From a virus (Duplodnaviria; Heunggongvirae; Uroviricota; Caudoviricetes): a stretch of 26,417 nt of DNA. The translations under genes and the position numbers were made by a program. Numbering within the stretch: the stretch's first letter is position 1; each line of letters starts with the position of its first letter. A model generated the notes under the pieces. That model worked only from the letters and a program-made list of their open reading frames with translations. It made no database searches and was not told the origin of the DNA. The stretch is from IMG/VR virus record IMGVR_UViG_2703718784_000007; one strand, given 5' to 3'. This document shows positions 301-25,768 of the stretch, piece after piece.

Positions 301-729
301 ATGTATTGCCGTGCTGTACCGGTTCTTGTTTTGATATTAGCCAGTCTGACAACTGGCTGCACAAAAGATGTATCGACAAATAATTATGATGCTTCGCTGC
401 ATCACTCAGATAAATTAATAAAGTCGCAAAATTTGAGCTTATCGGAACGTACCCCTGATGCCAGTGAAGAAATCCGGCAGTATGCCATTCAGGTCAGGGA
501 AGCCATAGAAGAACAGTTAAAGGATGCGGGTAAGTATTCAGGAAAAGAGTGTTCACTGAGAATGTATATGGCCCCGAATGGTCTTCTGCTACAGGTTAAA
601 AGAGAAAGCGGTGATCCCGATTTATGTCGTGAAGCGATGAATGCAGTAAAGAATGCTGATATACCATCACCACCGTCTTCAGGAGTATATAAAGCATTTA
701 GAAATGGCGTGCTGGATTTTAAACTCTGA
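301..729 (+). CDS. Lipoprotein with TolA C-terminal (domain III)-like domain; candidate moron
   Basis: ATG at 301 with GGAG upstream; N-terminal signal peptide ending in lipobox-like LTTGC; C-terminal ~90 aa closely resembles E. coli TolA domain III as recalled (GKxCxLR..APxGxLL..GDPxLC...IPxPPS...LDFK). Not verified by database search. Confidence 0.8.
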   Translation: MYCRAVPVLVLILASLTTGCTKDVSTNNYDASLHHSDKLIKSQNLSLSERTPDASEEIRQYAIQVREAIEEQLKDAGKYSGKECSLRMYMAPNGLLLQVKRESGDPDLCREAMNAVKNADIPSPPSSGVYKAFRNGVLDFKL

Positions 730-1047: not shown

Positions 1048-1115
1048 CAAAAAAGCCCGCGCTGGGAGACGCGGGCGGCAAGGAATAAACAATAAAACGT
1101 GAAGTAATATTTCAG
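1048..1115 (-). ncRNA. Candidate minus-strand small RNA, copy A (about 70 nt)
   Basis: Minus-strand sigma70-like promoter: -35 TTGCGC (plus 1147-1152), 18-bp spacer, -10 TATTAT (plus 1123-1128). Minus-strand intrinsic terminator (stem gcccgcg/cgcgggc at plus 1055-1076, followed by a T-run on the minus strand = plus A-run 1048-1054). Same architecture conserved in copy C. Confidence 0.3.
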
Positions 1116-1477
1116 CTGGCGAATAATACCCCATAGTAATCACTCTGCGCAACTGCGCGGCCTTTTTCGAATTGCGGGCTGTAGTCTCCCTTCTGCCGGG
1201 TGGCCTGGTTGCAGATTTCTTCATGGGGTAGGGTTCGGCAGTTAAAGCAGCGATGGCGCTGGGGCGTCGTGCTATAGGCGTTGAGCTGGATACCGGGCGT
1301 TTTGAACAGACTGCGCAGGCAATCAGGGATATATTTATCGGTAGCTGTTTGCAGAAGTAATCTCCCAAAATTCCATTTTTGGAATGCAGTGGTTGTTGCT
1401 GTAGTGTGGGCAAGTTCTGGAACTGGCTTCGTCCATTGCAGATGATTGTTAGCTGGATATCAGTTACCTCATGGAAA

Positions 1478-1711
1478 TGTTAAATGACTCACAATTCGGT
1501 TGATGGACTATTGTCTGATTGATGGAAGTCTTGTAAAAACGAGCCAGCATAGTGAATCCCCCTGTGCGGAGGGGCGTCTGACATGGTCTCCATAGCGATG
1601 GTCACAATACGCAGATTCAGTAGTCAGGCTGAATCTACCGGGAGGCACCCGGCACTATGCTGCTTATGGTGTATACACAGCGATCGGCCCCTCTCCTGAG
1701 GGGCTTTTTTT
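1478..1711 (+). repeat. Copy B of triplicated structured non-coding module
   Basis: Same conserved blocks as copy A; long-range helix 1547-1554/1653-1660 (gcatagtg/cactatgc) carries a compensatory change relative to A and C; hairpins 1559-1574 and 1638-1652. Confidence 0.6.
1687..1711 (+). terminator. Intrinsic terminator (gcccctc-tcct-gaggggc followed by ttttttt)
   Basis: 7-bp GC-rich stem, 4-nt loop, T7 run. Confidence 0.8.
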
Positions 1712-1730
1712 GTGCGGGAAAAGGCTGTGT

Positions 1731-1974
1731 TGTTAAATGTTAAATCCCTCACAGTTCAGATGGTTGATGCTTGCCTGTCTGACGGGGAGTTGTTAAAAAA
1801 GTTCTGCATGGTGAATCCCCCTGAGCGGAGGGGCATATCAGCGCAGGTGTTTCTACTCTATCCTTTCTGTGCGGGTTCAGGTGCTGATACTGAACTCACC
1901 GGGAGGCACCCGGCACCATGTAGTATACAGAGATTAGGCATACATCCAGGCTCCTCATTGCAGGAGCCTTTTTA
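1731..1974 (+). repeat. Copy C of triplicated structured non-coding module
   Basis: Same conserved blocks; helix 1806-1813/1914-1921 (one G-U wobble at its end). Confidence 0.6.
1948..1974 (+). terminator. Intrinsic terminator (aggctcct-cattgc-aggagcct followed by tttt)
   Basis: 8-bp stem, 6-nt loop, T-run. Confidence 0.7.
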
Positions 1975-1979
1975 CATGC

Positions 1980-2047
1980 AAAAAAACCGCTCCAGGGAAG
2001 AGCGGTTGGCAAGGAATAAATAACAAAACGTGAAGTAATTTATTCAG
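1980..2047 (-). ncRNA. Candidate minus-strand small RNA, copy C (about 70 nt)
   Basis: Minus-strand promoter -35 TTGCGC (plus 2079-2084), 18-bp spacer, -10 TATTAT (plus 2055-2060); minus-strand terminator stem aaccgctc/gagcggtt (plus 1985-2007) followed by T-run on the minus strand. Paralogous to the unit at 1048-1115. Confidence 0.3.
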
Positions 2048-2197
2048 CGCCCTAATAATACCTTACAGTAATCACATTGCGCAACTGTATGTAAGGGCGT
2101 ATTTCTTTTTTGCGGGCTGTTTTGTGTGACTTTTGTGTTTCCGGAGGTCAGCCCGAGCCTTCTCTGACTCAGAACATTATTCCGGCCGGGAGGATTC

Positions 2198-4186
2198 ATG
2201 GCATTTAAACACTACGATGTGGTCAGGGCGGCATCGCCGTCAGACCTTGCTGAACGACTGACACAAAAACTGAAGGAGGGGTGGCAGCCATTTGGCAGCC
2301 CTGTCGCCATCACGCCTTATACCCTGATGCAGGCTATTGCGGCGGAAGGTGATGTCACCACGCCGGTGCTGGTTAAACCATCGGGTGACGGGGAGACGGC
2401 TATCAGCAAGACCGGTGAGCCTGAATATTATTATGTTGTCGCGCTGGCGGGTCAGTCAAATGGTATGTCTTTTGGAGAGGGAGTACCGTTACCTGATTCT
2501 TATGATCGCCCTGATCCGAGAATTAAGCAGCTTGCCCGTCGACGTACCGTTACGCCGCGAGGCGTTCCCTGCACCTATAACGATGTTATTCCGGCAGATC
2601 ATTGTCTTCATGATGTGATGGATATGAGTGAAAAAAATCACCCCCGGGCAGACCTCAATAAAGGTCAGTATGGTTGTGTGGGTCAGGGACTGCATATTGC
2701 CAAAAAACTGTTACCGTTTATACCGGCGAATGCGGGCATTCTTCTGGTTCCATGCTGTCGTGGAGGCTCGGGAGTGACTACAGGTAATGAGGGAACATTT
2801 AACGCCTCTTCCGGGGCAAGCCCTGATTCTGCATTGTGGGGAGCTGATAAGCCGCTGTACCAGGATCTGTTAAGTCGCACGAAAGTCGCGCTGGCTAAAA
2901 ATCCCGGAAATATCCTGCTGGCGGTAATCTGGATGCAGGGGGAGAGTGATCTGGCTTCAGGAAGCCAGAGTCATAATGCTCTTTTTACTGGCATGGTACA
3001 GAAATTCCGTGCTGACATCGCTGATATGTCAGGGCAGTGCGTGGGGGGCTCGGCACTGAGCGTTCCGTGGGTTTGTGGCGATACGACGCATTACTGGAAA
3101 GAAAAATATGCTGCGTCTTATGAAACTGTATACGGTGGATATAAAAATAAGGCAGCGCAGAATATTCACTTTGTCCCTTTCATGGTTGATGGAAGCGGGG
3201 TAAATGTGCAGACCAATAATCCGGCAGAAGATCCTGATATTGAAGGTATTGGCTACTCCGGTTCGAAGTGGCGAGACAGTTCTGTCAGCTGGACGTCAGG
3301 TGACAGGGCAAGCCATTTCGGTTCATGGGCGCGGCGTGGAATTATTTCAGATCGTCTTGCAACCGCAATTCTGACCCACGCAGGCAAATACCCGGCGTTT
3401 ATCACCGGGCGGTCAGAAACGGTAGTTGCAGGAGATGAACGGGAAAACGTTACATCCGGAAATTTCCCGTCACCTGTGGAGGATGCTGCGTTATCACAGG
3501 ATGCACCTCAGAGAAGAACGGTTGTTGAGTATAATTCAGCTGTTGAGAAAGACAGCCTCGGTGGTAACTGGGCAGCCCAGCACTGGAATGCCCGGGACGG
3601 TGTCGCCGAGTTTGTTAATGATGAAAGCAGACAGGTGCTGAAGATTAAGCAGCATGAGGGCAAACAGGGACCGTGGATGCTGTCAGCAGGAGTATCAGCT
3701 GAAGATGCCCGTGCTCTGTATGAAAATGGCGGTGAAATAAAACTTGAATTCAGGTTGCCGGATGGTACCCAGGTTGCAGATGACAAATACCTCTTTGGTG
3801 TTTACCTGCCAGTTTCCGGGTGGACTCAGGAAGGCAACGGCAGCAATATGATGGCCTCCTTTTTCACTCAGACAAAAGCCAGTAACCTGGATGTCATGTA
3901 TCACGGTAAAACACAGCCTAATACAAAAATTGAGTCATTCGGTGCGGTTAATAACAACTGGCACACGCTTGTCTTTAAATATAAAGGAGGCGGCAATCAC
4001 CAGGTTATTCCGGTACTTGACGGAGAAGAGAAAACAGGTTTTGCACTGAAAGAAGGTCCGGTCACTTCTGCCTTTACGGTGGATAACATCACAGTGACAG
4101 GTATCAGCGCAAATCAGGGAAAATCTTATCCTGTCATGTTCCGCAGTATCATGGTAAGCATTAACCAGGCAACCTCTTCATCATAA
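2198..4186 (+). CDS. nanS: Prophage sialate O-acetylesterase (NanS-p family; SGNH/SASA esterase domain plus C-terminal domains)
   Basis: 662-aa ORF with GGGAGGA RBS; GQSNG-type catalytic serine motif (VALAGQSNGMSFGEG); size and position immediately upstream of the lysis genes as in Stx-type lambdoid prophages. Confidence 0.85.
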   Translation: MAFKHYDVVRAASPSDLAERLTQKLKEGWQPFGSPVAITPYTLMQAIAAEGDVTTPVLVKPSGDGETAISKTGEPEYYYVVALAGQSNGMSFGEGVPLPDSYDRPDPRIKQLARRRTVTPRGVPCTYNDVIPADHCLHDVMDMSEKNHPRADLNKGQYGCVGQGLHIAKKLLPFIPANAGILLVPCCRGGSGVTTGNEGTFNASSGASPDSALWGADKPLYQDLLSRTKVALAKNPGNILLAVIWMQGESDLASGSQSHNALFTGMVQKFRADIADMSGQCVGGSALSVPWVCGDTTHYWKEKYAASYETVYGGYKNKAAQNIHFVPFMVDGSGVNVQTNNPAEDPDIEGIGYSGSKWRDSSVSWTSGDRASHFGSWARRGIISDRLATAILTHAGKYPAFITGRSETVVAGDERENVTSGNFPSPVEDAALSQDAPQRRTVVEYNSAVEKDSLGGNWAAQHWNARDGVAEFVNDESRQVLKIKQHEGKQGPWMLSAGVSAEDARALYENGGEIKLEFRLPDGTQVADDKYLFGVYLPVSGWTQEGNGSNMMASFFTQTKASNLDVMYHGKTQPNTKIESFGAVNNNWHTLVFKYKGGGNHQVIPVLDGEEKTGFALKEGPVTSAFTVDNITVTGISANQGKSYPVMFRSIMVSINQATSSS

Positions 4187-25613: not shown

Positions 25614-25768
25614 AAAAAAATCCCGCAGAATCAGCGGAGCTGCGGGAGAGAACGATGAAGATTAACGTTATGGAGTTATTTTTCAGGCATCAAAAATGTA
25701 ACGCAGCGTCATTATTGTGGCTACAGGCAATTGCCGGAAATGTGAAGAATTTCAGAAATTTTATTCCG
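25614..25768. repeat. Copy 2 of duplicated ~160-bp non-coding element in the I-J spacer
   Basis: Same conserved blocks (aaaaaaatcccgcag...ctgcgggagagaacgatg...aaaaatgtaacgcagcgtcattattgtggctacagg...gaaatgtgaa); hairpin 25621-25647 has an identical stem and a different loop. Confidence 0.6.

Follow-up and report, generated by a model that had tools for sequence, protein, structure and literature searches.

The 26,417-nt stretch of viral DNA analyzed here (IMG/VR record IMGVR_UViG_2703718784_000007; hereafter the window) represents the late region of a lambdoid prophage, and its sequence recurs with 100% identity in E. coli S19-651 and several further Shiga toxin-producing E. coli (STEC) chromosomes. 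It carries two minus-strand units, A (1049-1117) and C (1980-2048), upstream of an esterase gene. We conclude that both units are very probably copies of a known prophage-borne, Hfq-dependent small RNA (sRNA) family, EcOnc08/EcOnc21/EcOnc42, which would act in trans and be transcribed from two starts. The EcOnc08-type family is a real feature that has already been published and is not new, and recognizing it in the window averts a false claim of novelty.

Identity and conservation of the two units

The loci Sp4 and Sp15 of E. coli O157:H7 Sakai and PP6 of enteropathogenic E. coli (EPEC) align lengthwise with the window. In Table S2 of Tree 2014 (PMC4104026), EcOnc08 is placed on the minus strand of Sp4 at 1179938-1180010 and appears in 5/5 data sets of Hfq crosslinking and analysis of cDNA (CRAC). 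EcOnc21 lies at 1180016-1180101, also on the minus strand, EcOnc42 lies in Sp15, and the three are homologues. As checks on the Sakai coordinate register we used the EcOnc05 probe, which falls in the Sp4 copy of STnc100, and read sequences from crosslinking, ligation and sequencing of hybrids (CLASH). Unit A was identical to the Sakai EcOnc08 peak at 70/73 positions, and unit C at 61/77. This peak (Sakai locus L006, 2439-2511) is the exact homologue of the ~70-nt segment that the original prediction had marked out as transcribed. Both copies contain the family core ACUUCACGUUUUGUUGUUUAUUCCUUGCC followed by the terminator, and both occupy the location of the family, between the moron/STnc100 and a nanS-p-type esterase gene, antisense to the late operon and tail to tail with STnc100.

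The family has also been reported in EPEC E2348/69. In Pearl Mizrahi 2021 (PMC8550237), the sRNA 'E2348C_1409.E2348C_1408.IGR' (NC_011601 1444797-1444978, minus) is stated to be homologous to EcOnc08/21/42, and was found associated with Hfq by sequencing of ligated interacting RNAs (RIL-seq). The PP6 locus is of the same sequence type as the Sakai EcOnc08 loci. With the Hfq crosslinking of the Sakai homologue (Tree 2014, PMC4104026), this EPEC homologue bears out the proposal that the units are minus-strand sRNA genes convergent with a plus-strand sRNA. Pairs of convergent sRNAs were described by Tree 2014 (PMC4104026) at the moron sites of Sp3, 4, 5, 9, 10, 11, 15 and 17, and a later paper and a review state that EcOnc42 "bookends" stx1AB at the 3' end.

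The plus-strand repeat array of the window corresponds to three matches to Rfam STnc100 (RF02076), namely copy A (836-1048, 172 bits), copy B (1518-1713, 121 bits) and copy C (1778-1979, 164 bits). Copies A and C are the convergent partners of units A and C, and copy B is without a minus-strand partner. The two units are 84% identical over ~140 nt. The window (26.4 kb) contains exactly two occurrences each of the core pattern ACTTCACGTTTTNTTNTTTATTCCTTGCC and the promoter pattern CAGTTGCGCA..GTGATTACT.T..GGTATTATT, where shuffles gave an expectation of 0, and neither pattern was matched near STnc100 copy B in a pattern search of the window. This agrees with the first description of two paralogous units placed after copies A and C and not after B.

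In unit A, a predicted +1 at ~1117 is followed by the core (1105-1077), the terminator stem (1076-1055) and the U-run (1054-1049). The corresponding parts of unit C are a predicted +1 at ~2048, the core at 2036-2008, the terminator stem at 2007-1985 and a U-run reaching to ~1980. A terminator scan of positions 1-2400 found 12 terminator-like sites, compared to 2.5 expected, and the terminators of both units were among them. As originally noted, the stems of the two copies are unlike (GCCCGCG/CGCGGGC in A, AACCGCTC/GAGCGGTT in C) while their position is the same. The spacing, given at first as back to back about 10 bp apart, was corrected: in both A and C, the unit and STnc100 terminator stems are separated by 15-17 bp and their tails overlap. 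In the folds of the predicted 67-68-nt RNAs (z = -3.2 for A and -5.5 for C), a U-rich stretch (...UUCCUUGCC) stays unpaired and is followed by a strong hairpin and a U-tail.

Both copies share with EcOnc08/21/42 and the EPEC homologue the sequence family, the position and orientation between STnc100 and the esterase, the promoter hexamers, the seed and the terminator position. Copy A differs from EcOnc08 by one seed change (GUUUUAUUG vs GUUUUGUUG), and the upstream part of the long form is absent from it. In copy C the seed contains GUUAUUU, the segment after the promoter is different and nothing of the original terminator stem is left; by its sequence we take this copy to be a diverged paralogue whose stem was exchanged. 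This prophage differs from the Sakai and EPEC loci in holding two copies in tandem.

No Rfam family was found on the minus strand, either at gathering scores or at E up to 10. OmrA-B (RF00079) reached 21.8 bits (E = 0.28) at 1048-1136 (minus), below its gathering score of 40 bits, and was treated as chance, and anti-hemB, Srn266 and rli32 scored far under threshold. STnc100 was rejected as the identity of the units themselves, as its three matches are on the plus strand and end at 1048, 1713 and 1979, with the units outside them on the other strand. Esr41, reported near PasD, lies in SpLE1 and had no match in the window. At up to 4 errors, the window also held no match to the fragment of HnrS (EcOnc10-12, a multicopy 66-nt prophage sRNA), to the probes for PasA and PasC (homologues of EcOnc51/52, located between the esterase and holin genes) or to the PasD probe. 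A small protein was considered as well, the candidates being a minus-strand open reading frame (ORF) at 952-1413 and the 31-codon ORF of the Sp4/Sp15/EPEC long form, and was rejected, the ATG being lost in copy C, Sp5 and UTI89.

The unit recurs in other genomes. It was present in 997/5426 complete E. coli genomes, in up to 7 places per genome, and none of the 40 of these records that were listed carries an annotation of it. It was also present in 59 phage records, most of them converting phages for Stx2a and Stx1, and in over 100 IMG/VR contigs. No match to the core was found in 185,579 species-representative genomes, which fits a narrow, strain-variable distribution and has no bearing on function. 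The context is constant in prophages of STEC, EPEC and uropathogenic E. coli (UPEC) and in free Stx phages, and in 120/133 copies an STnc100 core lies at most 160 nt downstream.

Divergent relatives retain CUUGCC and the hairpin with its U-run, while the 5' body varies. Eight variants with six different stems each folded separately to a hairpin of 7-9 bp followed by at least 6 U, with the seed unpaired. RNAalifold on these eight variants found double changes at only 2/6 pairs, on a MAFFT alignment that misregistered the swapped stems. The copy C allele also occurs in other prophages, for example in the IMG/VR contigs L031 and L108, where the C-type allele has a tandem seed duplication (TTCCTTGCTTCCTTGCC) that doubles the CCUUGC motif.

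Promoters and transcript length

Each unit has a candidate internal promoter of the form TTGCGC-18-TATTAT. In unit A it spans 1123-1152 on the minus strand (-35 TTGCGC 1152-1147, 18-nt spacer, -10 TATTAT 1128-1123), and in unit C 2055-2084 (-35 at 2084-2079, 18-nt spacer, -10 at 2060-2055). A simple promoter scan did not report these promoters, because TTGCGC fits the -35 consensus at only 3/6 positions. The geometry itself, which was part of the original prediction, held in both units and was present in 131/133 copies, always with a spacer of 18 nt. In seven divergent relatives, found by BLAST and not by pattern, the hexamers and spacing were unchanged, while the sequence of the spacer, the segment after the promoter and the flank upstream of it all diverge. 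In alignment, the internal promoter also coincides with those of AsxR (Sp5) and AgvB1 (Sp10) in its -35 box and 18-bp spacing. AsxR and AgvB are 51-60-nt primary transcripts whose 5' ends were mapped by rapid amplification of cDNA ends dependent on tobacco acid pyrophosphatase (Tree 2014, PMC4104026). Because the hexamers and the 18-bp spacing are invariant in divergent relatives and homologous to these mapped promoters, activity of the internal promoter is credible.

The -35 box of the A-type allele lies inside a palindrome, CTGCGCAACTGCGCGG, followed by CCTTTTT (1145-1170), and the terminator scan calls a plus-strand terminator-like site there. This palindrome is not present in copy C and is therefore not needed for conservation of the -35 box, which is also retained in the Stx1c allele, where the palindrome is likewise broken. 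A separate observation concerns E. coli 06_3044 (NZ_CP074942; locus L130, 2400-2500), where an IS66-family insertion directly upstream of AUAUUACUUCACG removes both promoters and spares the seed and terminator, leaving a natural promoterless copy.

The RNAs reported for the family are longer than ~70 nt. A published Northern blot with the EcOnc08/21/42 probe detected an RNA of ~271 nt, and this probe (AATAATATCCGACAGTAATCACTCTGCGCAATAGC), the only one used for these sRNAs, maps over the internal -10 to -35 region. The RNA-seq coverage of the EPEC homologue is given as 182 nt in Pearl Mizrahi 2021 (PMC8550237), and CLASH chimeras include AUAUUAUUCGCCAGCUGAAA, that is, the -10 hexamer TATTAT as RNA. 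These three observations show that, in these other strains, a longer transcript passes through the proposed internal promoter and starts upstream of it. The ~70-nt transcript first proposed was thus partly upheld: the segment equals the extent of the EcOnc08 peak, but a discrete 70-nt primary transcript was not supported by the published RNAs of 182 nt and ~271 nt.

A candidate for the upstream start was found at the esterase gene. Sakai and EPEC both have a promoter-like element, ATGCCA-17-GATAAT, and the 5' ends of two CLASH fragments, at UAAAAUGA, lie just downstream of it. The -35 of this element overlaps the esterase start codon, and the element also lies just upstream of the 5' end of the EPEC RNA-seq coverage. 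Its equivalent in the window is ATGCCA-17-AATAAT (2204-2176, minus; 9/12 matches in the promoter scan), which would serve copy C and whose -35 overlaps the start codon at 2198-2200 in the same way. We suggest that this promoter probably drives the long form. For copy C, the predicted product is a ~190-nt RNA (1980-2169, minus; fold z = -3.2), with its 5' end placed by homology to EPEC 1444797-1444978. It would be antisense to the esterase 5' untranslated region (UTR), and would match both the 182-nt EPEC RNA and the EcOnc21 and EcOnc08 peaks combined. Copy A is without this promoter, as its homology ends near 1196, and the internal TTGCGC-18-TATTAT is the only promoter identified for it.

These results also bear on a stricter model, in which each unit is an independent short gene whose only significant product is an RNA of ~68-70 nt from TTGCGC-18-TATTAT, and longer RNAs are minor read-in. 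The unchanged hexamers and spacing in divergent relatives and in 131/133 copies, the -35 box kept despite a broken palindrome, the geometry shared with AsxR/AgvB and the lack of another identifiable promoter in copy A all agree with it. In addition, the EcOnc08 CRAC peak stops right at the -10 box, and a gap separates it from the EcOnc21 peak. However, this model does not account for the ~271-nt RNA seen with a probe over the promoter, the 182-nt EPEC coverage or the CLASH reads that carry the -10 hexamer. The reported probe covers the promoter region and not the 3' 70 nt, and the -35 box is weak. We therefore consider the strict short-gene model unlikely, and infer that both the upstream and the internal start are used.

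Action in trans and its alternatives

Our preferred model is that the EcOnc08-type RNA is the antisense member of a convergent sRNA pair located between the moron, in the stx position, and the nanS-p-type esterase gene, with STnc100 (EcOnc27) as its plus-strand partner. The ~70-nt segment would be the working 3' module, in which an unpaired seed rich in U and G (CACGUUUUNUUNUUUAUUCCUUGCC) precedes a GC-rich terminator hairpin and an Hfq-binding U-tail. The upstream promoter over the esterase start codon, kept by copy C and lost by copy A, would add the ~190-nt RNA antisense to the esterase 5' UTR, and the internal promoter would give a ~68-nt RNA from both copies. With Hfq, CCUUGCC, and possibly the GU-rich stretch, would pair in trans with GGCAAGG or C/A-rich sites of mRNAs (cfa, dppA, tir) and presumably regulate them. 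Judged by these features, the RNA would be a class I-type, Hfq-dependent, trans-acting sRNA.

The RNA partners reported for the family are consistent with this model. In Table S6B of Pearl Mizrahi 2021 (PMC8550237), the EPEC homologue and its enterohemorrhagic E. coli (EHEC) counterparts are named, and the listed partners include the cfa 5' UTR (767 chimeras), the dppA 5' UTR (197 chimeras), tir, emrA and espC. The motif shared by the RIL-seq targets there, GGCA[AG]GG, is complementary to the seed of the RNA. Furthermore, RNase E-CLASH chimeras join the GU-rich core to mRNAs, indicating RNase E association. The RIL-seq data and the selective conservation of the unit favor the trans-acting model over its rivals.

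Several points weigh against the trans-acting model with two starts. The reported lengths disagree (182 nt vs ~271 nt), and in the available portions of the published texts neither 5' end is mapped. The CLASH support amounts to one chimera per pair. Pairing energies calculated by RNAduplex between the window seeds and the leaders of cfa and dppA did not improve on those of shuffled seeds, so that the calculation goes no further than the 7-8 bp CCUUGCC:GGCAAGG match. In the GU stretch, both window copies differ from the EPEC/EHEC reference by a G-to-A change, which would weaken pairing with the dppA C/A site. The expression evidence comes from Sakai and E2348/69, and not from the source strain or the copy C allele. 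The literature reports no case of a target regulated by this RNA, and a 2021 review gives the targets of EcOnc42 as unknown. Finally, most copies are nearly identical (>90%, flanks included), and recent shared ancestry could account for much of the conservation.

A mainly cis-acting role was the next alternative. Here, the tail-to-tail terminators would insulate the moron and STnc100 from the late genes, the RNA would be antisense to the esterase 5' UTR or to Q-antiterminated late read-through RNA and act by transcriptional interference or RNase III cleavage, and the trans targets would be incidental. Complementarity of the long form to the leader of the esterase gene is complete, and extends to ~30 nt before the start codon that the candidate promoter of this RNA overlaps. 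The position beside the esterase or a DUF1737 gene is constant, and every late transcript must cross both units. Yet copy A, separated from the esterase leader, still has an intact promoter, seed and terminator, and the unit is kept where the esterase gene is truncated, as in UTI89. The conserved parts are the seed and terminator rather than the part complementary to the leader, and the RIL-seq data comprise hundreds of chimeras with core-genome mRNAs. We regard a mainly cis-acting role as improbable. Pairing with late-operon read-through RNA, the antisense role named in the original prediction, is possible, but the published interaction data favor targets in trans.

An anti-sRNA sponge like AsxR/AgvB was also weighed, in which the 5' or GU-rich region titrates a core sRNA or AgvB itself. 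The units share the slot, the -35 box and the spacing with AsxR/AgvB, the relatives combine a variable 5' domain with a conserved 3' module, and UUGUUGUU appears complementary to the AgvB AACAACA motif. However, the conserved 3' body of AsxR/AgvB is absent, the Rfam models of both are unmatched at E up to 10, and the partners in the available list are mRNAs (cfa, dppA, tir, emrA, espC) and not sRNAs, which makes a sponge of this kind highly doubtful. A non-functional remnant, carried along with STnc100 and the leader of the esterase gene as prophage modules recombine, is hardly credible: although the >90% identity of most copies makes purifying selection inseparable from recent spread, divergent alleles with six stems keep the promoter hexamers, the spacing, CUUGCC and the hairpin with its U-run while all between has changed, and the RNA is bound by Hfq and RNase E and has enriched partners.

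Taken together, the observation behind the original prediction was confirmed and its interpretation partly supported. The EcOnc08 family is widespread in EHEC, EPEC and UPEC prophages and in Stx1/Stx2 phages, where it adjoins the toxin/moron position. It has tir, cfa and dppA among its partners, yet it has neither a name, an Rfam model nor an annotation, and although reported before it was never characterized. What our analysis adds is a conserved internal promoter homologous to that of AsxR/AgvB, a predicted long and short form, and seed variants in two tandem copies.

Prophage setting and related sRNA systems

The gene order around the window is the Q antiterminator, a DNA methyltransferase gene, tRNA-Ile and tRNA-Arg, the small tolA-like gene, the non-coding stretch, the SASA/nanS-p-type esterase gene (2198-4186) and the lysis genes. 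ARAGORN found no tRNA in the window, because the window starts inside the 3' end of the prophage tRNA-Arg gene (positions 1-22). The 142-aa ORF at 301-729 (plus), annotated 'tolA', follows the Q-tRNA module and precedes STnc100, exactly where Stx phages have stx. Its N-terminus resembles that of a lipoprotein (…LASLTTGC…), and the gene is a candidate for moron cargo.

In the interval between unit A and STnc100 copy B (1160-1520), no homology to the esterase leader remains past ~1196, and the next part is a fragment (~1197-1361) annotated in RefSeq as a DNA methyltransferase pseudogene. Because the leader homology stops and this fragment follows, the A/B/C array seems to have been pieced together by recombination from the moron regions of different prophages rather than to have arisen by a simple tandem duplication. 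At the other end of the window, adjoining near-matches to the Northern probes for PasB (2 substitutions/indels) and EcOnc22/23/24 (4 errors) were found at 25618-25678 and nowhere else in the window; the corresponding RNA would be encoded by the minus strand. These near-matches suggest that a further known prophage Hfq-sRNA gene lies close to the right end.

Three known systems are comparable to the units. STnc100 (RF02076; EcOnc27/EcOnc05/sRNA103) is the other half of the pair, always adjacent and tail to tail, but it lies on the opposite strand, is ~206-247 nt long and unrelated in sequence, and has no overlap with the units (its Rfam matches end at 1048 and 1979). PasD is structurally related to STnc100. 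GcvB, a core-genome sRNA with the GU-rich seed R1, is alike in function only, through its unpaired U/G-rich seed. RIL-seq pairs the EPEC homologue with the dppA 5' UTR, and the EPEC/EHEC allele can pair with the C/A-rich AAACAACAAAC of dppA. In contrast, there is no sequence or structural homology to GcvB, the dppA pairing is no better than that of shuffled seeds, and both window alleles are mismatched there.

The closest comparison is with AsxR (RF02703), AgvB (RF02702) and EcOnc03. These are found in the same slot, convergent with STnc100; in Sp5, the slot holds AsxR, convergent with EcOnc27 (= STnc100). Alignment of the window with Sp5 (AsxR) and Sp10 (AgvB1) places units A and C in the same slot, with the shared flank containing the -35 TTGCGC and the 18-bp spacing. 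Like the units, these sRNAs are short, bind Hfq and end in a terminator that comes after a variable 5' part. Unlike the units, AsxR and AgvB have a -10 of TAAAAT and a transcribed body and terminator unrelated in sequence to those of A and C, and their partners are sRNAs, whereas those listed for the EcOnc08 family in the available data are mRNAs. The ~42-nt 3' region conserved in AsxR/AgvB (GUAUCUCAUGC..GCCCGAACCCA.UCGGGC; GUAUCUCAUGC.AUUGCCCGAACCCA.UCGGGC) is not in the units, and the bodies do not align. The AsxR and AgvB Rfam models gave no match at E up to 10 in positions 700-2300, and the same models match Sakai Sp5 at 88 and 41 bits.

The residual interest of the units lies in their long and short forms, in the cassette-like sharing of the -35 box with AsxR/AgvB and in two natural seed alleles in tandem. 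As a tentative idea, which we hold with low confidence, the moron-site slot could be a modular sRNA cassette system, where a fixed flank -35 drives swappable -10/seed/terminator cassettes of the AsxR, AgvB, EcOnc03 and EcOnc08 types and further alleles. Tandem duplication might then have given the seed alleles AUUG (A) and GUUA (C) with different targets, one copy making the short form only and the other also a 190-nt form acting in cis on the esterase leader.

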